Shown one piece after another: positions 40,643 to 53,019 of a stretch of 64,000 bases of DNA. Positions within the stretch are counted from its first letter, which is position 1. Every line of letters begins with the position of its first letter. Position numbers and translations under genes: made by a program. The notes beneath the pieces were generated by a model. It was given only the letters and a program-made list of their open reading frames with translations, did no database searches and had not been told where the DNA came from. The stretch lies in assembly GCA_026188615.1 (NCBI GenBank), contig GCA_026188615.1_4525.1; one strand, given 5' to 3'. The DNA comes from a phage.

Positions 40643-41549
40643 TAATTACACTTGTTAATTTAGAAAGACCAGATTTTACAAAGTATGAATAAATCTTGCC
40701 TTTAGGTTGTGGTTTATATGAATTATAATACTCTATAATGGTTGAAGCAATATTATCAGGGATATAATTAAAATCAATGAGAACCAAATTTTCTTGATAC
40801 CGTTTATATTCTTCTGCACTTAATAATACTTCAGCTTGAGAACGGTCATTGGCAATTGCTTCAATAATCGATGTTTTCATACTCGGAGTTCGTTCACCAT
40901 CAACTCTGGTAAACCAGAAGTCGCCACGAACTCGAACAGATGCAACACCATCCTTACGGTCACCTTTAAGAATTTTAGTCATGCAATCAATTTCAGCAGA
41001 ACCGTTCTTAATTTTAACCCATTTTTTCTGTGGTGGCGACCACTGTTTAACGTTAGGATATTTGTGTAATTGTGTAAAGTCACCATCTGATGCAACAATA
41101 CATACTTTATGTCCAGCTAATGACAAATATTTAGTTAATACACCGATATGGTCATCCGCTTCATACTTGTCAATATCCATTACAACGTATGGCATGTATT
41201 TCTTAATCTCATCAACAACTTGATGGAGTGCAGTAAAATATCCTTCCCAATCCCACTTTGAAGCTTCACGATCGGTTTTACGATTTTTCTTGTAATAGTA
41301 AGCAAAGTCACGACGCCAATAACCCGAAGTAGCATTATCCATACACAATACAAATTTTGTATAGCCTTGCTTACGGAACATCACTACGTTTTTACGAATT
41401 GAATTCAAGATTACATGACGAACCATCGGAACGGTAATTTTATCGCCGTCTTCAAAGTTGTTTAATGCGGCTGCCAATGCAATGTTACTAAAGTCGGCAA
41501 GTGCAATACCTTCTTTGTAATCTTCATCCAACATCATTTCTAAATCCAT
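40632..41549 (-). CDS. rnh: RNase H (5'-3' exonuclease / flap endonuclease)
   Basis: 305 aa; FEN-family acidic clusters; colinear with T4 RNase H. Confidence 0.9.
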   Translation of the reverse strand: MDLEMMLDEDYKEGIALADFSNIALAAALNNFEDGDKITVPMVRHVILNSIRKNVVMFRKQGYTKFVLCMDNATSGYWRRDFAYYYKKNRKTDREASKWDWEGYFTALHQVVDEIKKYMPYVVMDIDKYEADDHIGVLTKYLSLAGHKVCIVASDGDFTQLHKYPNVKQWSPPQKKWVKIKNGSAEIDCMTKILKGDRKDGVASVRVRGDFWFTRVDGERTPSMKTSIIEAIANDRSQAEVLLSAEEYKRYQENLVLIDFNYIPDNIASTIIEYYNSYKPQPKGKIYSYFVKSGLSKLTSVINEF

Positions 41550-41581
41550 ATGAACCTCTTGTTCAGTTAGTCAACTTGTCT

Positions 41582-41610
41582 ATAGTAACACACTCATTTG
41601 AAAGCGTAAA
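41582..41610 (-). promoter_or_regulatory. Early-promoter-like cassette upstream of rnh
   Basis: Minus strand TTTACG, 17 bp, TACTAT. Confidence 0.4.
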
Positions 41611-41626
41611 TAGTCTTTTACTCATT

Positions 41627-41634
41627 TATAAATA
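41627..41634 (+). promoter_or_regulatory. Late promoter TATAAATA for gene 34
   Basis: Exact motif 35 nt upstream of the ATG. Confidence 0.6.
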
Positions 41635-41668
41635 GTAAAATAGAACACATAATGATAAGAGGACTACC

Positions 41669-44600
41669 ATGGTTGACATCAAACGTAAGTTCAGGGCCGA
41701 AGATGGTCTTGATGCAGGCGGTGATAAGATAGTTAACGTTGCGCTTGCCGACCGCACAGTTGGCACCGATGGCGTGAACGTTGACTTTTTGGTGCAAGAA
41801 AACACCGTACAGAATTATGATGATACGCGCGCGTATACAAAAGATTTTATTGTTCTTTATAATAATCGTTTTTATCAAGCTTTAAGCGATATTCCAGCTC
41901 CGGCAGGCCCTTTCTCTTTGGGTAAATGGAAGGCAACTCGTACAGATGCAGATTGGATTACAGTTCAAGGCGGAGATTTCCAATTATCAGTAGGTAACTC
42001 TATTGCGGTTGATACTTCAGCTGGCACTGATATTAATTTCACTTTGCCTCAAAATCCTTTAGATGGCGATACAGTTATTTTGTCTGATATTGGCGGTAGA
42101 GTAGGCTATGTAAAAGTTCAAATTACTGCAGCGGCTCAAAGTATTGTAAACTTTAGAGGACAACAGGTTCGTTCAGTTTTAATGACGCACCCAAAATCTA
42201 AAATGGTCTTCATTTTTAGCAACCGCCTATGGCAAATGTATATTTCTGATTATGAACGTAATGCAGTCACAGTAACTCCTGCTAAGCCGTATCAGGCGCA
42301 ACCTAACGATTTTATCATTCGTCGTTTTACATCAGCCGCTCCTATTAATATTACATTGCCTCGCAATGCTAATAATGGCGATATTATTAATTTAGTTGAT
42401 TTAGACAAATTAAACCCGTTATATCACACAATTGTCAAAACTTACGATGATACAACTTCTATACGAGAAGCTGGTGTTCATGTAGCAGAAGGACGTAATA
42501 CTGCGGAAGCGTTCTTTGTTTATGATTCTGCTAATAGCTTATGGCGTGTTTGGGAAGGTGACCAGAAATCTCGTTTACGTATAGTTCGTAATGATACTGA
42601 TTTACGCCCTAATGAAGAAGTTCTTGTTTTTGGAACTGATAATAATACAATCTCGACGGTAAATCTTACTTTGCCTACAGATATTTTGTCTGGCGATACT
42701 GTTAAAATATCGTTGAATTATATGCGTAAAGGGCAAACTGTAAAAATTAAAGCTGCTGAAGGCGATACAATTGCTAGCAGTATTTCTTTATTACAGTTCC
42801 CAAAACGTTCGGAGTATCCACCTGATGCACAATGGGTTTCTGTTAGTGAGCTGGAATTTAATGGTGATACTTCGTATGTACCTGTACTTGAGTTAGCTTA
42901 TATAGAAGATTATTCATCTGAAACAAAATATTGGGTAGTTCAACAAAACACCGTAACCGTCGAACGAGTCGATGCATCGAGCAATAACACTCGAGCTCGT
43001 TTAGGTGTTATTGCTCTTGCTTCTCAAGCGCAAGCAAATGTTGATTTAGAAAATGCTCCTGGTAAAGAACTGGCTATTACTCCGGAAACATTAGCAAATC
43101 GTACAGCAACTGAAACTCGTCGTGGTATTGCTCGTATTGCAACAACTGCACAAGTTAACCAGAATACCGATTTTGCATTCCAGGATGATTTGATTATTTC
43201 TCCTAAGAAATTGAATGAACGTACAGCAACTGAAACCCGTAGAGGTGTTGCTGAAGTTGCAACTCAGACTGAAACTAATGCTGGCACAGATGATACCACT
43301 ATTATTACTCCTAAGAAATTGGATGCCCGTCAAGGTTCTGAAGTTTTATCTGGTATTGTAAAATACACATCTACGACTGGTACTACAGCTGCTACTATTC
43401 GTGGTAATGCTGGGACTAACGTTTATAACAAAGCCGTAGATAATTTAACTATTTCTCCAAAGGCTCTTGACCAGTATAAAGCTACCCCTACTCAACAGGG
43501 CTCAGTAATTCTTGCTATTGAAAGCGAAGTTATCGCTGGCGAATCACAAGCTGGTTGGGCTAATGCTGTAGTGACCCCTGAAACTCTGCATAAGAAAACT
43601 TCTACTGATGGACGTATTGGTTTAATTGAAATTGCTACGCAAGCAGAAACTAACACTGGAACTGATTATACTAGAGCAGTAACGCCTAAGACGTTAAATG
43701 ATAGGAAAGCTACGGAAGGATTATCTGGCATAGCCGAACTTGCTACGCAAGTTGAATTTGATACTGGAACTGATGATACTCGTATCTCGACTCCACTGAA
43801 AATTAAAACTCATTTTGATTCTTCTGACCGTACCAGTGTTAATTCTGATTCCGGACTTATTGAAGAAGGAACCTTGTGGAACCATTATACTCTTGATATT
43901 TCTAAAGCAAATGAAACACAACGCGGTACACTTCGCGTAGCGACCCAGGCAGAATCTAATGCAGGAACTTTAGATGATGTTCTTATTACTCCTAAAAAGC
44001 TTTTAGGGACTAAGTCCACTGAAACATCTGAAGGTGTAATTAAGGTTGCTACTCAGGCTGAAACTGTAACAGGAACTTCTGCTAATACTGCTGTATCACC
44101 TAAGAATTTAAAATGGATTGTTCAATCAGAACCATCATGGACTGCTACTACGGCAATTCGTGGATTCGTTAAAACTTCATCTGGTTCTATTACATTTGTC
44201 GGTGACGATACTCAAGGTAATACCCAGGATTTGAATCTTTATGAGAAAAATAGTTATGCTATTTCTCCATATGAATTAAACCGTGTACTTGCTAACTACT
44301 TACCGTTGAAAGCTAAAGCAGCTGATAGTAATTTGTTAGATGGTCTAGATTCTCTTCAGTTCATCCGTAGAGACATCGACCAGACGGTTAATGGTTCTTT
44401 AAGTCTTACTAAACAGACCAACCTGAGTGCTCCTTTAGTATCTACAAGCACTGCTTCTTTTGGTTCCGAAGCATCTGTTACTCGTAGATTAACTCTTAAT
44501 GACTCTAGCGGTTCCGAAATAATTTTCACTAAAGGAACCCAATCTCTTAGTAATAAAGAGAATTTCGTTGTTAGAGCATGGGGTAATAGCGCTACAGATG

Positions 44601-45502
44601 GTGCCCGTGATACAGTATTTGAAGCGGGTGACGAAACCGGATACCATTTCTATTCTCAGCGCGCTGCTGATAATAAAGTATCATTTAATATTAATGGAAC
44701 ACTTTATTCAACAGGTATTGTTTCTACAAATGGATTAAATGTTACGGGTGTTTCTACCTTTACCGGGCCTATTAGTGCTACAGGCGAAATTGTTTCTAGT
44801 TCTCCTATTGCATTCAGAGCTATTAACGGTAACTATGGTGTTATGCTTTATAATGCTGGTAACAGTTCTTATATTGCATTAACTAACTCAGGTGACCAGA
44901 CCGGGACGTTTAATAACTTACGCCCGATCACGATTAACAACGCCACAGGCTTAGTTCGTCTTGACAATGGTGTTCAAATCACAAGTGGTGCAACAATAAC
45001 TACCGGCGGGTTAACTGTAAATAACAGAATTATTTCTAACGGCGTTAAAACTGCCACGGTTTATACCGATAAACCAACAGCTTCTACTGTAGGTTTTTGG
45101 TCTATTGACATTAACGATTCTGCTGTATATAGCCAATTCCCTGGATACTGGACGCGTGATAACAAAGGTAACCGTGACCAAGAAATTAAATATCCTGGTA
45201 CTTTGACTCAATTCGGCAATAGCTTAGATTCGCTTTATCAGGATTGGATTTGTTATCCTACGGGTGCAAATGGTGGTAGTATTCGTTATACTCGTACCTG
45301 GCAGAAAAATAAAGATGCTTGGACTTCATTTGCAATGGTATTTGATAGTGGCAACCCACCTTCACCTAGCGATGTCGGTGCTATCCCATCTGATAATGCT
45401 GTTATTGGAAACCTTACTGTTCGAGACTTCTTACAATTAGGAAATGTGAGAATTGTTCCAGACCCGGTTAACAAAACAGTTAAATTTATATGGGTTGAAT
45501 AA
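41669..45502 (+). CDS. 34: gp34 long tail fibre proximal subunit
   Basis: 1277 aa; repeated beta-structure modules (TPKKL., TATETRRG., ATQ.E.N.GT); conserved N- and C-termini as T4 gp34. Confidence 0.9.
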   Translation: MVDIKRKFRAEDGLDAGGDKIVNVALADRTVGTDGVNVDFLVQENTVQNYDDTRAYTKDFIVLYNNRFYQALSDIPAPAGPFSLGKWKATRTDADWITVQGGDFQLSVGNSIAVDTSAGTDINFTLPQNPLDGDTVILSDIGGRVGYVKVQITAAAQSIVNFRGQQVRSVLMTHPKSKMVFIFSNRLWQMYISDYERNAVTVTPAKPYQAQPNDFIIRRFTSAAPINITLPRNANNGDIINLVDLDKLNPLYHTIVKTYDDTTSIREAGVHVAEGRNTAEAFFVYDSANSLWRVWEGDQKSRLRIVRNDTDLRPNEEVLVFGTDNNTISTVNLTLPTDILSGDTVKISLNYMRKGQTVKIKAAEGDTIASSISLLQFPKRSEYPPDAQWVSVSELEFNGDTSYVPVLELAYIEDYSSETKYWVVQQNTVTVERVDASSNNTRARLGVIALASQAQANVDLENAPGKELAITPETLANRTATETRRGIARIATTAQVNQNTDFAFQDDLIISPKKLNERTATETRRGVAEVATQTETNAGTDDTTIITPKKLDARQGSEVLSGIVKYTSTTGTTAATIRGNAGTNVYNKAVDNLTISPKALDQYKATPTQQGSVILAIESEVIAGESQAGWANAVVTPETLHKKTSTDGRIGLIEIATQAETNTGTDYTRAVTPKTLNDRKATEGLSGIAELATQVEFDTGTDDTRISTPLKIKTHFDSSDRTSVNSDSGLIEEGTLWNHYTLDISKANETQRGTLRVATQAESNAGTLDDVLITPKKLLGTKSTETSEGVIKVATQAETVTGTSANTAVSPKNLKWIVQSEPSWTATTAIRGFVKTSSGSITFVGDDTQGNTQDLNLYEKNSYAISPYELNRVLANYLPLKAKAADSNLLDGLDSLQFIRRDIDQTVNGSLSLTKQTNLSAPLVSTSTASFGSEASVTRRLTLNDSSGSEIIFTKGTQSLSNKENFVVRAWGNSATDGARDTVFEAGDETGYHFYSQRAADNKVSFNINGTLYSTGIVSTNGLNVTGVSTFTGPISATGEIVSSSPIAFRAINGNYGVMLYNAGNSSYIALTNSGDQTGTFNNLRPITINNATGLVRLDNGVQITSGATITTGGLTVNNRIISNGVKTATVYTDKPTASTVGFWSIDINDSAVYSQFPGYWTRDNKGNRDQEIKYPGTLTQFGNSLDSLYQDWICYPTGANGGSIRYTRTWQKNKDAWTSFAMVFDSGNPPSPSDVGAIPSDNAVIGNLTVRDFLQLGNVRIVPDPVNKTVKFIWVE

Positions 45503-45510
45503 GAGGTTAT

Positions 45511-46635
45511 ATGGAAAAATTTATGGCAAGGTTTGGACAGGGATACGTCCAAACGCCGTTTTTATCGGAAAGCAATTCAGTTAGATTTAAGCTAAGTATA
45601 GCGGGTTCATGCCCGCTTTCAACAACTAATCCGTATATTTTGTTCCAAAACGAGCCTTTAGGGTTGCAGTCTTTTGGTATTGGACTAAATGTTAGGGTGA
45701 TAAATCCGGAAAATGGAACTATAGTTGATAGTAAATTATACAATTTTGCGCCTACAAATAATGCAACTTCAGCTGCATTTATTTCGTTTGTTAATACATA
45801 CGCAGATAATTTCATTTTCGCATTTATTTCTAATAACAAATTTAATTTGCCACCGGAAATAATTGAATGGTTTAAAGCTGCTGGGAGTTCAGTTATACCG
45901 TCAATTGAAGTTGCTAGTCTTGTTGATATTTCATATTCAGCGTTTTATGTTTCAGGTAAAAATACTATTGCATTAGAACACATAAAATACAGTAATAAGA
46001 AAACAATTTCTGATTACGCAACTCCATTAGATATTGTATATGACTCTATTGCTGATATAGGTGCTACCGGCTATCCTAGACGTACATATGAAGCTCTAGA
46101 AACGTTTTTATCTCCTGTTGGAGGAACTAACAATGAAATAAAAAGGATGCCTACGTCATCCCTTGTTACTCCTATCGCAAACTATGGATTAAAGCCTACA
46201 GATTTTCTTTATTTGAAATTTCAATTAATGGCTGATGAAGAATTATTAGAGGAAGGAACCACAAGACTTTCAATTCGTTTCTTTAAGTCTCCATCTAGCT
46301 CTCCTATATCATCTAAAGATATAAACTTTGATGGAACTGCCCGGGAGTGGAAGCTATATGAAGAATACGTTGAAATACCGGCTGAAGCTGATGGCTTTAC
46401 AGTATATTGTTACCGTACAGCCTCAGTCGGTCAAGGTGGACTAAGAAATGTTATTTTCACTGAAGTATCATGTAACGGAAGTATAGCAAAACCCGCCGAG
46501 TTTGGTATAAACGGTATTCGTGTTAATTACATTGATGAATCATTAACCGGTAATGATATAATGGACTTGCCTACTCAGTTATCTAACGACACAGGTAAGG
46601 TATTTGGGCAGGAATTTAAAGAGTACACAGAATAA
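45511..46635 (+). CDS. 35: gp35 long tail fibre hinge
   Basis: 374 aa; position and size. Confidence 0.75.
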   Translation: MEKFMARFGQGYVQTPFLSESNSVRFKLSIAGSCPLSTTNPYILFQNEPLGLQSFGIGLNVRVINPENGTIVDSKLYNFAPTNNATSAAFISFVNTYADNFIFAFISNNKFNLPPEIIEWFKAAGSSVIPSIEVASLVDISYSAFYVSGKNTIALEHIKYSNKKTISDYATPLDIVYDSIADIGATGYPRRTYEALETFLSPVGGTNNEIKRMPTSSLVTPIANYGLKPTDFLYLKFQLMADEELLEEGTTRLSIRFFKSPSSSPISSKDINFDGTAREWKLYEEYVEIPAEADGFTVYCYRTASVGQGGLRNVIFTEVSCNGSIAKPAEFGINGIRVNYIDESLTGNDIMDLPTQLSNDTGKVFGQEFKEYTE

Positions 46636-46636
46636 A

Positions 46637-46656
46637 GGAGACTTCGGTCTCCTTTT
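46637..46656 (+). terminator. Intrinsic terminator ggagac-UUCG-gtctcc plus TTTT after gene 35
   Basis: Seen directly. Confidence 0.6.
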
Positions 46657-46660
46657 CGCG

Positions 46661-46668
46661 TATAAATA
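46661..46668 (+). promoter_or_regulatory. Late promoter TATAAATA for genes 36-37-38
   Basis: Exact motif 26 nt upstream of the gene 36 ATG. Confidence 0.6.
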
Positions 46669-46694
46669 CTTTAATATTAATAAGGAGACACGAA

Positions 46695-47351
46695 ATGGCC
46701 GATTTAAAAGCCGGAAGTACAGTTGGTGGTTCCGTCATATGGCATCAAGGCAATTTTCCTTTAATGCCAGCTGGCGATGACATCCTATATAAAACATTTA
46801 AATTATACACCGAATATAACAAGCCAAAAGCGGCTGATAACGATTTCGTATCTAAAGCAAATGGTGGGACATATCTCAAAAAGGTAATCTTTAACGAAGG
46901 TGTTGCAGTCAAAACAGCAGATGACCAAACGAATGGCATTTTTTCTGGTGGTGGTGACGCCGCGACATTCGACCAAACAAACATGGATATTGTTTCGTGG
47001 TATGGTATTGGGTTTAAATCATCTCAAGGTACAGGTGAAAGAACTGTTGTAATTGATACTCGCACCGGTAATATAAGTTCTAAAGGCGTTATTGAAGCAT
47101 CTCAATTCAGAGCCACAACGTTAGCACCTTTAAATAATTACGACCTTACTCGCAAAGATTATGTTGATAGTCAAATAAATACAGTTAATGCTAATGCAAA
47201 CAGTCGTGTACTCCGTTCAGGAGATACGATGACCGGCGCGCTAACCGCCCCAAACTTTTTCTCACAGAATCCTGCATCTCAACCCTCGCATGTTCCACGA
47301 TTTGACCAAATTGTTATTAAGGATTCTGTTCAAGATTTCGGCTATTATTAA
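46695..47351 (+). CDS. 36: gp36 long tail fibre proximal-distal connector
   Basis: 218 aa; position and size. Confidence 0.75.
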   Translation: MADLKAGSTVGGSVIWHQGNFPLMPAGDDILYKTFKLYTEYNKPKAADNDFVSKANGGTYLKKVIFNEGVAVKTADDQTNGIFSGGGDAATFDQTNMDIVSWYGIGFKSSQGTGERTVVIDTRTGNISSKGVIEASQFRATTLAPLNNYDLTRKDYVDSQINTVNANANSRVLRSGDTMTGALTAPNFFSQNPASQPSHVPRFDQIVIKDSVQDFGYY

Positions 47352-47359
47352 GAGGACTT

Positions 47360-50300
47360 ATGGCTACTTTAAAACAAATACAATTTAAAAGAAGCAAAAC
47401 TGCAGGAGCACGTCCTGCCGCTTCAGTATTAGCCGAAGGTGAATTGGCTATAAACTTAAAAGACCGTGTACTTTTTACTAAAGATGACCAAGGAAATATT
47501 ATTGATCTGGGTTTTGCTAAAGGTGGTAGTATTGACGGGAATGTTATTCATACTGGCAATTATAACCAAACTGGCGATTATACTTTAAATGGCACCTTCA
47601 CTCAGACAGGTGATTTTAATTTAACCGGTATTGCTCGAGTAACTCGTGATATTATTGCCGCTGGGCAGATTACGACTGAAGGCGGAGAACTTATTACAAA
47701 AAGTTCAGGTACAGCACATGTTCGTTTTCATGATTCGGCTGATCGTGAACGTGGCATTATTTATTCACCGGCTAATGATGGATTAACTACGCAAGTAGTT
47801 AATATCCGCGTTAAAGACTACGCCGCTGGTGATGAAAGCACCTATGCATTTTCGGGCAGTGGACTATTTACTTCACCTGAAGTATCAGCATGGAAATCTA
47901 TGTCAACTCCTCAGATTTTGACAAATAGAGTTATTACTAATAATAAATCTACGAGTGATTATGACATTTATTCTATGGCAGACAACGTTCCATTGTCTGA
48001 AAGCACTACTGCTATTAATCATCTCCGTGTTATGCGCAATGCTGTAGGCGCTGGTGTATTCCATGAAGTTAAAGATAATGATGGAATAACTTGGTATACT
48101 GGAGATGGCTTAGACACTTATCTTTGGTCGTTTACCTGGTCCGGTGGATTGAAAGCTGGTCATTCTATTTCTGTTGGTACTCCTGGTGGCAATAAAGGAT
48201 ACTCTGAATTAGGGACTGCTTCAATTTCTCTTGGCGATAATTATACCGGGCTAAAATGGCATCAGGATGGATATTTTTTTACGGTAAACAACGGTACAAA
48301 AACTTTCCTTTCTGGTCCGGCGGAAACCACTAGCCTTAGAAAAATGGTTATGGGTTATTCTGTAAATGGTACTGATTTGACTACTCCTCCAACTGAAAAC
48401 TATGCTCTTGCTACTGTTGTGACATATCACGATAATAACGCGTTTGGAGATGGTCAGACTCTTTTGGGATATTATCAAGGCGGTAATTATCATCACTATT
48501 TCCGTGGTAAGGGTACCACAAACATTAATACTCATGGTGGTTTGTTGGTTACTCCAGGTAATATTGATGTTATTGGCGGTTCTGTTAATATAGATGGTAG
48601 AAATAATTCTTCTACACTAATGTTTAGAGGCAACACAACAGGATACAGCTCGGTTGATAATATGGATATTAAAGTTTGGGGTAATACGTTTGTTGATCCA
48701 AGCGGAGGTATCCGTAAAAACATTATGGAAATTTCTGATGCAACTAGCTGGATGAGCTATATTCAAAGACTTACTACTGGCGAAGTAGAAATGAACGTTA
48801 ATGGTTCATTTGAATCATCTGGTGTTACTGCTGGAGATAGAGGAGTTCACACAACAGGTGAAATTTCATCCGGAGCAGTGAATGCTCTTCGTATTTGGAA
48901 CGCAGATTATGGAGCCATTTTTAGACGTTCAGAAGGAAGTCTTCATATTATTCCAACTGCTTATGGCGAAGGCAAAGATGGCGATATCGGTCCACTTCGC
49001 CCGTTTAGTATGGCTTTAGATACCGGTAAAGTTACTATTCCAGATTTACAATCGAGCTACAATACGTTCGCTGCTAACGGTTATATTAAATTTGTTGGTC
49101 ATGGCGCTGCCGCAGGTGGATATGATATTCAATATGCCCAAGCGGCTCCTATTTTCCAGGAAATTGATGATGATGCTGTAAGCAAATATTATCCTATTGT
49201 TAAACAGAAGTTTTTAAATGGTAAAGCCGTTTGGTCTTTAGGTACTGAAATTAATTCGGGTACATTTGTTTTACACCATATCAAAGAAGATGGATCACAA
49301 GGACATACATCTCGTTTTAATCAAGACGGCACAGTTAATTTCCCTGATAATGTTCAGGTTGGTGGTGGTGAAGCTACTATTGCTCGCAACGGTAACATCT
49401 GGTCTGATATCTGGAAAACGTTTACTTCAGCAGGAGACACCACAAATATTCGCGATGCAATAGCTACCCGTGTTTCTAAAGAAGGCGACACGATGACCGG
49501 CCGCTTAACCCTTAAAACCAACTCAGATGCTGTTGTTATCGATTATCCGGCAGATGAAGCGGGTTATGTTAAGGGTAAAAAAGGTGGTGTTGATAACTGG
49601 TATGTAGGTAATGGTGGTGCTGATAACGGTTTAGCTTTCTGGAGCTTCCAATCCCAAGGTGGTATTAATATCAACCCGAACGGTGAAGTTATTCTGGCGC
49701 CGCAAGGTGTTGCAATAGTCAATATAAACCGCGACCGTATTCATATGAATGGTTCCAACTGGATTGCACATAAATCTGGCGCATGGGGCGACCAATGGGG
49801 CTTAGAAGCACCTTATTTCCTTGATTTTGGTAGCGTTGGCGAAGACAGTTATTATCCTATCATTAAAGGCAGATCTGTAATTAGTGGTCAAGGATATACT
49901 ACTTCTGTTGACCTTGGTATTAGACGTACACCTCAAGCATGGGGACAAGCGATAATTCGAGTTGGTAATGCCGGAGGCGCTGACGGTCCTGTGGGTATTT
50001 TTGAATTCCATTCGTCTGGACTATTCTATAGCCCTAATATGGTTCAAACTCCGGCAATTGGTGTTGGTACTGCTAATGGACTTGGTGCTCCAAGTATTGC
50101 AATCGGTGATAATGACACGGGCTTATCACATGGTGGTGATGGTCGAATTAACATGGTTGCCAATGGTATACATATTGCAAACTGGGGAGCAGGCTATCAA
50201 TCTCATCCTGGGCTTTGGGATTCAACTGGTGCTTTTTGGACAGAAACCGGAAGAGCTATCGTTTCTCATGGCCATTTAGTTCAGGCGAATGACAGCTATT

Positions 50301-50665
50301 CAACGTTTGTCCGTGATGTTTATGTCCGCTCTGATATTCGTGTTAAAAAGAACCTCGTTAAATTTGAAAATGCTTCTCAGAAGCTTTCTAAAATTAACGG
50401 TTACACTTATATGCAGAAACGTGGAACAGATGAAGAAGGTAATCAGAAATGGGAACCTAACGCTGGTTTGATAGCTCAAGAAGTTCAAGCTATTTTACCA
50501 GAATTAGTTGAAGGCGACCCGGATGGTGAATCTTTACTTCGTTTAAACTATAACGGTGTAATTGGTTTAAATACAGCTGCAATCAATGAGCATACCGCAG
50601 AAATTGCAGAACTTAAGTCAGAGATTGAAGAGCTTAAAAAATTAGTTAAATCATTGTTAAAATAA
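47360..50665 (+). CDS. 37: gp37 long tail fibre distal subunit with C-terminal intramolecular chaperone (S74-like) domain
   Basis: 1101 aa; N-terminal [13 protein letters not shown]; His-rich central segment; last approx. 115 aa contain SDIRVKKN ... [15 protein letters not shown] ... coiled coil. Confidence 0.85.
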
Positions 50666-50670
50666 TAAGA

Positions 50671-50690
50671 GGGGCTTCGGCCTCTTGGAG
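50671..50690 (+). other. Stem-loop with UUCG tetraloop between genes 37 and 38 that includes the gp38 Shine-Dalgarno sequence
   Basis: gaggggc-UUCG-gcctctt, then ggagg. Confidence 0.3.
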
Positions 50691-50696
50691 GTTTAT

Positions 50697-51470
50697 ATGG
50701 CAGTTGAAGGACCGTGGGTAGGATGGTCTGCAAGGGTACAGACTGGAGATCCTTGGATGGGTGGTGCCGCACAGAGATTGAGAATGGGAATTCCGTTTTG
50801 GATGAGTAATATGATAGGACGATCTGTTGAAGTAATTCACACACTTGGAGCAGACCATAACTTCAATGGTCAATGGTTCCGAGATAGATGTTTTGAAGCC
50901 GGCGGTGCTCCTATAGTGTTTAATATCACAGGCAACTTAGTATCATATAGTAAAGATGTTCCATTATTCTTTATGTATGGCGATACGCCAAACGAATATG
51001 TTACTTTGAATATTCATGGTGGAGTTCATATGTGGGGACGAGGTGGTAACGGTACTGTAAACGGAAACCCAGGCACAAATGGCGGCGATGTAATCCAAAA
51101 TGATATCGGCGGAAGACTTCGTATTTGGAACTATGGCGTTATTGCATCAGGCGGTGGTGGTGGTGGTGCAGTGTCATTACAGAATAGCTGGGCGCCAAAT
51201 GCTACAGCAGGTGGCGGTGGTGGTAGACCATTTGGCCTCGGCGGCGGTGGCGTTAATTGGCCGGGTGGTAATGCTAGTTATGACGCCCCGGGCGGTGCCG
51301 GTTACACTTCCCAATTCGGCGGAGGCAATGGTGGTGATGCTGGAGGTCGGGGCGGAGATGGATGGGGTAATCACTTATCTAGATCTGGCGGTGGTGCTCC
51401 TGGCAGAGCAGTATTCGGAAGTTCACCGTCATGGGGTGCTACAGGCACAATCTACGGCTCCTGGATTTAA
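50697..51470 (+). CDS. 38: gp38 receptor-recognising adhesin (T2-type) with glycine-rich islands
   Basis: Start placed at MAVEGPW (SD GGAGG upstream); poly-Gly runs (GGGGGG, GGGGG) separating variable segments. Confidence 0.8.
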
Positions 51471-51488
51471 ACGATAATACCTCTCAAT

Positions 51489-51496
51489 TATAAATA
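51489..51496 (+). promoter_or_regulatory. Late promoter TATAAATA for holin t
   Basis: Exact motif 20 nt upstream of the ATG. Confidence 0.55.
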
Positions 51497-51515
51497 TTGA
51501 TAAATGGGAGGTAAT

Positions 51516-52175
51516 ATGGCAGCACCAAAAGTATCATTTTCGCCTAGTGATATTTTATTTGGGTTGCTAGACCGCATTTTCAAAGATAACGCCTCTGGAA
51601 ATATTCTTATTTCCAGAGTTGCTGTTGTAGTTCTTTTGTTCCTAATGGCACTAATATGGTACAAAGGGAATATTTTTATGGATTATTACGTGAGGTCGAA
51701 ATATGATACTTACACAGAAGTAATTCAAAAAGAAAGAAATACACGATTTGAATCTGCGGCTTTAGAACAACTACAAATAGTCCACGTCACATCAAGGGCG
51801 GATTTTAGTTCGGTGTATTCTTTCAGACCTAAAAATCTAAATTATTTCGTCGACCTTATTGCGTATGAAGGTAAGTTACCTAGCACAGTAACTGAAAAAT
51901 CTATGGGAGGATTTCCTGTCGATAAAACGACAGCAGAATATTCGGTCCATTTAAGTGGACTTCACTTTACTTCTAAAACAGATTTTGCTTTCTTACCTAC
52001 CAAATCAAAAACTCCGGAACTGGCATATATGTATAGTTGTCCTTACTTCAATTTGGATAACATATATGCTGGAACTGTTTCTATGTATTGGTATAAGGGG
52101 TCAGATGTGTTAAATGAAGAACGCTTGGCCGCAATATGCAACCAAGCTGCAAGGATATTAGGGCGGGCTAAATAA
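51516..52175 (+). CDS. t: Holin T (lysis-inhibition-competent holin)
   Basis: Start at MAAPKVSFSP; single N-terminal transmembrane segment and large periplasmic domain; colinear with T4 T. Confidence 0.85.
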   Translation: MAAPKVSFSPSDILFGLLDRIFKDNASGNILISRVAVVVLLFLMALIWYKGNIFMDYYVRSKYDTYTEVIQKERNTRFESAALEQLQIVHVTSRADFSSVYSFRPKNLNYFVDLIAYEGKLPSTVTEKSMGGFPVDKTTAEYSVHLSGLHFTSKTDFAFLPTKSKTPELAYMYSCPYFNLDNIYAGTVSMYWYKGSDVLNEERLAAICNQAARILGRAK

Positions 52176-52448
52176 TTAGTTGTTAGAATACATCGTCAAA
52201 TGGCGATAAATATTTTCAAAACCTTCATTGAATTCACTAATCAGTGTTTTCTTTTCTTCGGCAGTTAAATTTGTAATTAGTTTTCTGAACGAATTCTGAT
52301 TTAGCTGCCGACCATCTTTTTTAATTCCAATCTCATTCAAGAATCCGATGAAATTTGCTCGGTCTTCAACAATATCTTCCCTCGAGAATTTAATCAAAAT
52401 AGAAGCAACCGTAATAATTTCACGTACAATTTCAATATCTTTATTCAT
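52176..52448 (-). CDS. asiA: AsiA anti-sigma-70 factor
   Basis: 90 aa; near-colinear with T4 AsiA (MNK.I..VREIITVASILIKFSREDIVE.RANFI.FLNEIG). Confidence 0.85.
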   Translation of the reverse strand: MNKDIEIVREIITVASILIKFSREDIVEDRANFIGFLNEIGIKKDGRQLNQNSFRKLITNLTAEEKKTLISEFNEGFENIYRHLTMYSNN

Positions 52449-52482
52449 AACGTTTTATTCATTCCATTTGGTTGATATGAGT

Positions 52483-52512
52483 ATAGTACCATTATCAGTG
52501 TTGATTGTAAAC
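52483..52512 (-). promoter_or_regulatory. Early promoter for asiA (GTTTAC, 18 bp, TACTAT)
   Basis: Read directly on the minus strand. Confidence 0.5.
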
Positions 52513-52710
52513 AGCTTTTTCTACACTTTTAACGTAATCAGTGTAGTCTTCCTGTTCATACGAGTGTAAGGCCAAGAATGCGGCTAATAGTTCATTATAG
52601 ACTAAAGCCTCACGCTCACGTTCTGCCTCTACTACGTTCTGAAGATTATGGCTCATATCATTCCTTATAACTATCAATGTAGTCCTGTATGTCAAAGAAT
52701 GACATTTCAT
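52495..52710 (-). CDS. Hypothetical ORF, 71 aa (uncertain; overlaps the next ORF and the asiA promoter)
   Basis: ORF in track; likely shorter (internal start) or non-coding. Confidence 0.3.
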   Translation of the reverse strand: MKCHSLTYRTTLIVIRNDMSHNLQNVVEAEREREALVYNELLAAFLALHSYEQEDYTDYVKSVEKAVYNQH

Positions 52711-52945
52711 ATTCTAGGGCATTAAGAGCCCGTTCTTCAGTATAGTCAGAACCAAAGACGATAGTGATTTCACCAGGCTTCATGTGATTGAAATCCACAC
52801 TAAAAGGAATACGAGAACATACTTCGTCTGCCATATCTGCAACAACACTACAATACACTTCTCGGTTAACCTGATAAAGCTCTGCAAGTTCTTCGCATCG
52901 AATAACAAGTTCAGTGGCAGGATTTTCTTTGATTTTAGTAAGCAT
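52658..52945 (-). CDS. Acidic protein, 95 aa; possibly Arn-like by size, charge and position
   Basis: Highly acidic; lies in the asiA-motA interval where T4 encodes arn; identity not verifiable here. Confidence 0.35.
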   Translation of the reverse strand: MLTKIKENPATELVIRCEELAELYQVNREVYCSVVADMADEVCSRIPFSVDFNHMKPGEITIVFGSDYTEERALNALEYEMSFFDIQDYIDSYKE

Positions 52946-53019
52946 AGTCTTTACCCTTATGTTTTTGTTTGCGTTTAGATTGAAGTTCTGATTTCTTCTT
53001 GTCCTTATGGACAGAAGCC

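Follow-up and report, generated by a model that had tools for sequence, protein, structure and literature searches.

The gp38 adhesins and the processed gp37 of phages T2 and T6 were reportedly described by the Henning laboratory in 1986-89 and by Trojet et al. in 2011, and the structure of the S16 tip complex, deposited as PDB 6F45, is said to be that of Dunne et al. from 2018. In T2 and T6, the C-terminus of gp37 is cleaved and the protein is then capped by gp38, in which variable segments accompany conserved glycine-rich motifs (PMC3157838, where the original report of T2 gp37 processing is cited as Drexler et al. 1986). Phage S16, which targets Salmonella OmpC (PMC12892980), carries a gp37 that is autocleaved before a conserved serine (DLNVS^SDRRIKK, with the cut marked by ^), and the cut removes 113 residues and bares the gp38 docking surface (PMC7917993). 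In the solved gp38 proteins, an attachment domain of three helices at the N-terminus is accompanied by a beta-helix and by polyglycine type II helices, which the glycine-rich motifs form and which are stacked as a three-layer sandwich; the variable segments provide the distal receptor-binding loops (PMC6851490, PMC12892980). In S16, three conserved tryptophans of gp38 act as prongs in pockets of the gp37 trimer (PMC6851490).

The cleavage mechanism is described for the endosialidases, in which a serine and a lysine five residues downstream constitute the catalytic dyad while an arginine stabilises the oxyanion, the site being thought to become correctly positioned in the folded trimer only (PMC3742443). 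Domains of this type (K1F endoNF, GA-1 3GUD, the T5 L-shaped fibre and MyRF) share the Ser/Lys pair five residues apart and the Arg, a G(L/V/F)IAQ core and a helical tail, and lie at the extreme C-terminus of trimeric beta-helical fibres.

The stretch of DNA analysed here (the window) comprises 64,000 nucleotides of a phage contig (GCA_026188615.1_4525.1, assembly GCA_026188615.1). Genes 37 and 38 of the window very probably constitute a T2-type tip module, found at the distal end of the long tail fibre in an RB69-like (Mosigvirus) T-even phage, and none of the analyses run gave a result contradicting this explanation.

Source Phage and Long-Tail-Fibre Operon

RB69-like phages (genus Mosigvirus, Straboviridae) matched the window at 96-98% identity and full length in megablast searches covering positions 41000-53000 and 1-25000, whereas no record identical to the window was found in these same two segments. 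The window comes from an RB69-like T-even phage of the genus Mosigvirus. Open reading frames and Pfam matches delineate the standard T-even long-tail-fibre operon, g34-g35-g36-g37-g38-t, on the plus strand (Table 1), in the same order and on the same genus-level backbone as in RB69 (NC_004928, with gp37 and gp38 as RB69p254 and RB69p255). The order 37-38-t is common to the window, RB69, T6, S16 and T4; moreover, g38 is found directly 3' of a g37 bearing a Peptidase_S74 (S74) domain and 5' of the holin gene t, and RB69, T6 and S16 are arranged likewise.

Table 1. Features of the long-tail-fibre operon and of its distal tip module in the window (positions in nucleotides)
Feature	Position	Strand	Basis
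g34	41669-45502	+	ORF and Pfam
g35	45511-46635	+	ORF and Pfam
g36	46695-47351	+	ORF and Pfam
g37, distal long-tail-fibre subunit, 1101 aa and stop	47360-50665	+	ORF; 87% aa identity to RB69 gp37
Last strand of predicted mature gp37, D986-V-Y-V-R990	50315-50329	+	Aligned with S16 and fPS cleavage contexts
C-terminal intramolecular-chaperone (Peptidase_S74) domain of gp37, S991-K1101, 111 aa	50330-50662	+	Pfam PF13884
Heptad-patterned, probably helical tail of the chaperone domain	50576-50662	+	Read from sequence; aligns with S16 and MyRF tails
Intercistronic hairpin GAGGGGC-UUCG-GCCUCUU, between g37 stop and g38 ribosome-binding site	50669-50686	+	
Shine-Dalgarno GGAGG of g38	50687-50691	+	5 nt upstream of ATG; read from sequence
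g38, T2-type tail-fibre adhesin, 257 aa and stop	50697-51470	+	Pfam, PDB, PHROG and RB69 matches
gp38 residues 1-40: attachment domain at the N-terminus, bearing W7/W20/W35	50697-50816	+	PF21721
Putative receptor-specificity part of gp38, residues 82-257: rest of beta-helix domain, glycine-rich motifs and variable loops	50940-51467	+	
TATAAATA, match to the T4 late-promoter consensus, upstream of holin gene t	51489-51496	+	
Gene t (holin)	51516-52175	+	Pfam Phage_holin_T, E 5e-89

The motif TATAAATA, the T4 late-promoter consensus, occurs on the plus strand of the operon also ahead of g34 (at 41627) and of g36 (at 46661), and the copy preceding t marks the end of the g36-g37-g38 unit. The short interval between g37 and g38 is occupied by a hairpin with a seven-pair stem and a UUCG loop, as given by the minimum-energy fold. 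A hairpin is present at the equivalent place in RB69, LF82-1, fPS-90, T6, S16 and T4, with loops and stem sequences that differ. It was not called an intrinsic terminator because no T-run follows it on the plus strand, and it scored as terminator-like only on the minus strand, via the A/T run found there. A sigma-70 promoter scan of 50000-52300 was uninformative (7 sites versus 6.2 expected), and scans of the whole window found neither Rfam families nor tRNAs.

gp38 as a T2-Type Adhesin

The start of gp38 was placed at the ATG at 50697, and the longer frame opening with a TTG at 50685 was discarded since the resulting N-terminus, MAVEGPWVG, agrees with those of RB69 and S16. The protein is covered by two Pfam families, Gp38_N (PF21721; 71.3 bits against a cut-off of 25, E 6.5e-20) at residues 1-40 and GP38 (PF05268; 278.6 bits against a cut-off of 25, E 5.4e-83) at residues 45-257. 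It also matches PHROG 2056, described as "tail fiber protein; host specificity" (E 2e-106), the crystal structure of the PP01 adhesin (9v85_A, E 1.1e-73, residues 37-256) and, end to end, that of the S16 adhesin (6f45_D, E 2.7e-48, residues 1-257 against 1-249). The full-length matches to two solved adhesins settle the family to which gp38 belongs: judged by homology, it is a T2-type tail-fibre adhesin, as the initial annotation had proposed for a gene at precisely 50697-51470. NCBIfam, a library aimed at cellular genomes, gave no family for either gp37 or gp38.

In an alignment of the window, RB69, T6 and S16 proteins, the tryptophans W7, W20 and W35 of the attachment domain are invariant. 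Further downstream, runs of six (51150-51167, GGCGGTGGTGGTGGTGGT), five (51210-51224), four (51240-51251), three (51318-51326) and three (51387-51395) glycines are found, glycine making up 26% of the protein as a whole and 35% of its residues 117-257. Across the four adhesins the glycine-motif columns are invariant and variation lies in the intervening segments, which bears out the earlier description of glycine runs separating variable segments. The polyglycine type II sandwich fold is only predicted for this protein, from its homology to 6F45 and 9V85; a single-sequence AlphaFold2 run without an alignment yielded an unusable model (mean pLDDT 30.4, pTM 0.18).

The RB69 gp38 is identical to that of the window at 255 of 257 residues, the differences being G70S and L181I, and at the DNA level 19 of the 774 nucleotides of gene 38 differ, corresponding to 17 synonymous and 2 non-synonymous codon changes. 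The T6 gp38, which like its gp37 belongs to the same Pfam families as the window protein, is 62% identical overall but differs in attachment-domain subtype and loops. T6 is counted among the Tsx/OmpA/OmpF-binding types (PMC12032242). The S16 tip has the same end-to-end architecture (S74 domain, SDxRxK motif, three tryptophans, beta-helix and glycine motifs), with a gp38 that is 49% identical and variable loops that differ.

Receptor and Host Range

The receptor of the window phage would most probably be OmpF together with the LPS core, and possibly also FhuA, because its gp38 has the same loops as those of RB69 and fPS-2/fPS-90. RB69 depends on FhuA and a full LPS core in addition to OmpF (PMC3157838). 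OmpF and the LPS core are the receptors of fPS-2 and fPS-90 (PMC7917993). Over residues 82-257, the gp38 proteins of fPS-90 and the window differ at a single position out of 176 (A234Q), and fPS-2 gp38 is reported to have an alanine at that site. OmpF may nevertheless not be strictly required by the window phage, since on ompF and tolC mutants a drop of no more than one log was seen with FL31, a Mosigvirus sharing 93.8% DNA identity with the window across g37-g38-t (PMC12032242).

The similarity to fPS-90, a Tequatrovirus from another isolation host, drops outside this part of gp38. Residues 1-81 show 28 differences from the window and represent a T6-like attachment domain, and the two gp37 proteins share no more than 27% overall identity. 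In the DNA, identity to fPS-90 is 53-69% in the 5' part of g38, rises to 91-100% over approximately 50950-51400 and falls to about 75% in gene t; the flanks of this 3' cassette of about 450 bp, in which the receptor-binding loops are encoded, are 53-76% identical to fPS-2/fPS-90. The pattern fits the modular exchange of gp38 specificity domains that Trojet et al. are said to have described. That the cassette moved recently between the two genera, and that it recognises the OmpF of both E. coli and Yersinia, is a tentative and rather doubtful proposition.

Essentially the same specificity domain is carried by phages of E. coli B/K-12 (RB69), of E. coli LF82 and of Yersinia, and for this reason gp38 should predict the receptor better than the host range. 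The hosts of fPS-90 are Yersinia pseudotuberculosis and only one of the E. coli strains tested. Factors besides gp38 must contribute to host range, and the initial placement of host-range determination in gp38 stands as far as receptor specificity is concerned and is an overstatement for host range as a whole, the same domain occurring in coliphages and Yersinia phages. A stronger version of this argument, in which gp38 would fix the receptor while host range came largely from the gp37 shaft, the short tail fibres, access through LPS/O-antigen and intracellular defences, deserves serious consideration, even if we judge it somewhat less probable than its opposite. It draws on the sharing of one specificity domain among RB69, the LF82 phages and fPS-90, on the need of RB69 for FhuA and the LPS core besides OmpF, and on the gp37 shaft, where residues 701-950 depart from RB69 more than any other part of the locus. 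Against it, swaps of gp38 loops and point changes in gp38 alter the host range of T2-type phages (PMC3157838, PMC12892980). In any case, such a division of roles would qualify the explanation of the locus as a T2-type tip and would not replace it.

The C-Terminal Chaperone Domain of gp37 and Its Predicted Self-Cleavage

The last 111 of the 1101 residues of gp37, at its extreme C-terminus, correspond to the intramolecular-chaperone domain that the initial annotation had recognised. Residues 991-1050 match Peptidase_S74 (PF13884, "chaperone of endosialidase") over profile positions 1-57 of 58 with 48 bits and E 1.5e-12, and with a curated cut-off of 22 bits a chance match can be dismissed. The last 154 residues match the S16 gp37 chain 6f45_A (E 1.4e-38), and the protein also matches Pfam Gp34_trimer and, weakly, gp37_trimer. 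Both motifs named in the initial annotation are in place, SDIRVKKN beginning at residue 991 (nucleotide 50330) and the 15-residue motif at residue 1036 (nucleotide 50465). The domain had been given a start at 50321, that is, at residue 988, three codons upstream of the serine, and a length of approximately 115 residues; its identity is upheld, with the extent corrected to 111 residues. The claimed terminal coiled coil finds its counterpart in the heptad-patterned tail, which is predicted to be helical and part of which is encoded by a 21-nt tandem duplication (50598-50637).

A profile built from the window, RB69, T6 and S16 sequences extends these relationships to the distant endosialidase-type domains, reaching MyRF (7dc3_A, E 8e-7), a tail fibre (8jov_1, E 1e-5) and the GA-1 chaperone (3gud_A, E 0.027). 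SDIRVK of gp37 is aligned in these comparisons with ADLRAK of MyRF and SDERHK of GA-1. None of the residues S, D, R and K of SDxRxK varies in the four-sequence alignment, in which the G-x-IAQ core is kept too. With the motif intact in the window (Ser991, Arg994 and Lys996), the endosialidase catalytic residues would correspond here to S991, K996 and R994. From the profile match, gp37 ends in a Peptidase_S74 intramolecular-chaperone domain whose Ser/Arg/Lys catalytic motif is conserved.

Self-cleavage is predicted between R990 and S991 (nucleotides 50329 and 50330), because the S16 cut precedes the conserved serine and the released neck-appendage chaperone chain of GA-1, 3gud_A, begins at the serine. 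On these two homologues, the earlier proposal of a cut after the serine is corrected to one before it. The context DVYVR^SDIRVKKN of the window aligns with DLNVS^SDRRIKK of S16 and DVYIR^SDGRLKI of the fPS phages, fPS-2 as well as fPS-90 sharing the same type of cleavage context, DVY(V/I)R^SD; in RB69, the context VRDVYVR^SDIRVKKN is identical.

One could suppose that the S74-like domain is a degenerate remnant kept on mature gp37, with gp38 binding elsewhere or alongside, a view that might appeal to the identity of only 33% between the chaperone domains of the window and T6. We consider it very improbable. All four residues of SDxRxK are conserved, and the domain is 96-98% identical to that of RB69 (gp37 of 1103 aa) when the adjoining upstream shaft, at residues of about 701-950, is only 50-74% identical, which indicates that the chaperone domain is under strong constraint. 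In addition, the S16 domain, 54% identical over the aligned 121 residues, is reported to be autocleaved (PMC7917993) and the gp37 of T2/T6 is known to be processed (PMC3157838).

Comparison with T4

T4 shares with the window the 37-38-t position of gene 38, the post-gene-37 hairpin and a homologous N-terminal gp37 shaft. Its gp37, unlike those of T6, S16 and the window, is devoid of S74 and has instead a Collar/Phage_fiber (PF07484, PF03335) receptor-binding end, and its gp38, of 183 aa, acts as an assembly chaperone and is unrelated to that of the window, so that the contrast with T4 drawn in the initial annotation is sustained. That the window gp38 could be a T4-style assembly chaperone absent from the virion, with gp37 itself binding the receptor, is hardly credible: older records (AY303349) do call RB69 gp38 a "distal long tail fiber assembly catalyst", an apparent carry-over from T4, but BLASTP gave no meaningful alignment of the window gp38 with T4 gp38 (best E 1.0), the protein is homologous over its full length to adhesins that have been solved in complex with the gp37 tip or found to bind OmpC, Pfam assigned to the window gp37 an S74 match and neither of the Collar and Phage_fiber domains that characterise the receptor-binding C-terminal region of T4 gp37, and the RB69 RefSeq record names the unrelated gp38 as the adhesin in the T2 subfamily.

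Proposed Formation of the Fibre Tip

In the model that we favour, of a T2-type tip, gp37 would be made as a 1101-aa precursor, the last 111 residues of which would nucleate trimerisation and folding of the shaft. After folding of the trimer, the Ser991/Lys996 dyad, aided by Arg994, would cut between R990 and S991, the 111-aa chaperone would leave, and a flat trimeric tip ending in ...DVYVR would be bared. A single gp38 would then dock on the gp37 trimer at its tip, giving a 3:1 stoichiometry, through its N-terminal helical domain and the three tryptophans W7, W20 and W35. The C-terminal part of gp38 is expected to be a beta-helix carrying the polyglycine type II sandwich of conserved glycine-rich motifs, with the intervening variable segments forming the distal loops that would bind the outer-membrane receptor, most probably OmpF and the LPS core. 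In this respect the window would differ from the endosialidase-type systems, as the surface freed by cleavage would serve as the docking site for a separate adhesin and not as the final tip. The presence of gp38 in the virion, at the fibre tip, is likewise expected from the T2-type relatives, for which this location and receptor binding have been shown (PMC3157838, PMC12892980, PMC7917993).

Significance for the RB69-Like Phages

The T2-type tip is already described for T2, T6, RB69, S16 and the fPS phages, and the window is practically identical to RB69. What results is the correct fibre-tip annotation for one more RB69-like phage, with little that is new. Several records still name this gene "distal long tail fiber assembly catalyst", a designation taken over from T4 that is incorrect for the T2-type gp38 family. 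For engineering purposes, retargeting would be directed at the gp38 loops, and compatibility would be a matter of the gp38 N-terminal domain and the gp37 DVYVR tip. Should the doubtful transfer of the g38 cassette between genera, along with its recognition of OmpF from E. coli and Yersinia alike, prove true, adsorption to Y. pseudotuberculosis or Y. pestis would become possible for this coliphage-like Mosigvirus, and the transfer would constitute a further case of the known modular shuffling of gp38, with no new principle involved.

Sequence Relationships of gp37 and gp38

Adhesin genes of the gp38 kind are usually described as hypervariable. When gene 38 of the window (50697-51470) was compared codon by codon with its RB69 counterpart (positions 10205-10978 of L001, the RB69 locus), the changes comprised 17 synonymous and only 2 non-synonymous substitutions, an imbalance that indicates strong purifying selection on the gene. 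The 3' part of the gene (window ~50950-51400) shares 91-100% DNA identity with Yersinia phage fPS-90, which belongs to another genus (Tequatrovirus). Outside this stretch the identity to fPS-90 drops to 53-69% in the 5' part of g38 and to about 75% in gene t, and such high identity flanked by low identity on either side indicates a swapped specificity-domain cassette.

The upstream fibre gene product, gp37, is a mosaic, as judged from pairwise identities. Residues 101-250 (window 47660-48109) are 96-100% identical to RB69 versus 74-86% to LF82-1, whereas residues 701-950 (window 49460-50209) show 50-74% identity to RB69 versus 94-100% to LF82-1. Against either phage, gp38 and the gp37 chaperone domain remain conserved.

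Transcription and Intercistronic Signals

Exact matches to TATAAATA, which is the T4 late-promoter consensus, precede g34, g36 and t, with none found on the + strand ahead of g37 or g38, and this distribution suggests that g36-g37-g38 constitute one late transcription unit. The motif occurs 12 times across the whole window versus 7.9 expected, a count that is not significant by itself. The hairpin separating g37 and g38 has same-position equivalents in RB69, LF82-1, fPS-90, T6, S16 and T4, with variable stem sequences and loops (UUCG, CUAA, UUU or UACG). It is not followed by a T-run on the + strand, and may serve in mRNA stabilisation or in tuning gp38 versus gp37 translation.

Sequence features of the tail-fibre operon
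Feature	Window position	Strand	Location
TATAAATA, exact match	41627-41634	+	just upstream of g34
TATAAATA, exact match	46661-46668	+	just upstream of g36
TATAAATA, exact match	51489-51496	+	just upstream of t
Hairpin, C(UUCG)G tetraloop (GAGGGGC-UUCG-GCCUCUU)	50669-50686	+	between g37 stop codon and g38 Shine-Dalgarno sequence
Perfect inverted repeat, 11-bp stem (CTCTGGAAATA-TTCT-TATTTCCAGAG)	51593-51618		coding region of holin gene t

Two observations concern neighbouring genes. The inverted repeat within t appears terminator-like on both strands in a simple scan. Residues 58-131 of the hinge protein gp35 (window 45511-46635) match the Pfam ILEI (interleukin-like EMT inducer) domain with 30.2 bits (E 6.5e-7; cut-off 27 bits).

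Database Annotation of gp38

Adhesin-type gp38 is still named "distal long tail fiber assembly catalyst" in many phage records (AY303349, MH051913 and ON782582, among others); further records give "tail protein and peptidase" or "hypothetical protein". The assembly catalyst designation is a carry-over from the unrelated gp38 of T4.
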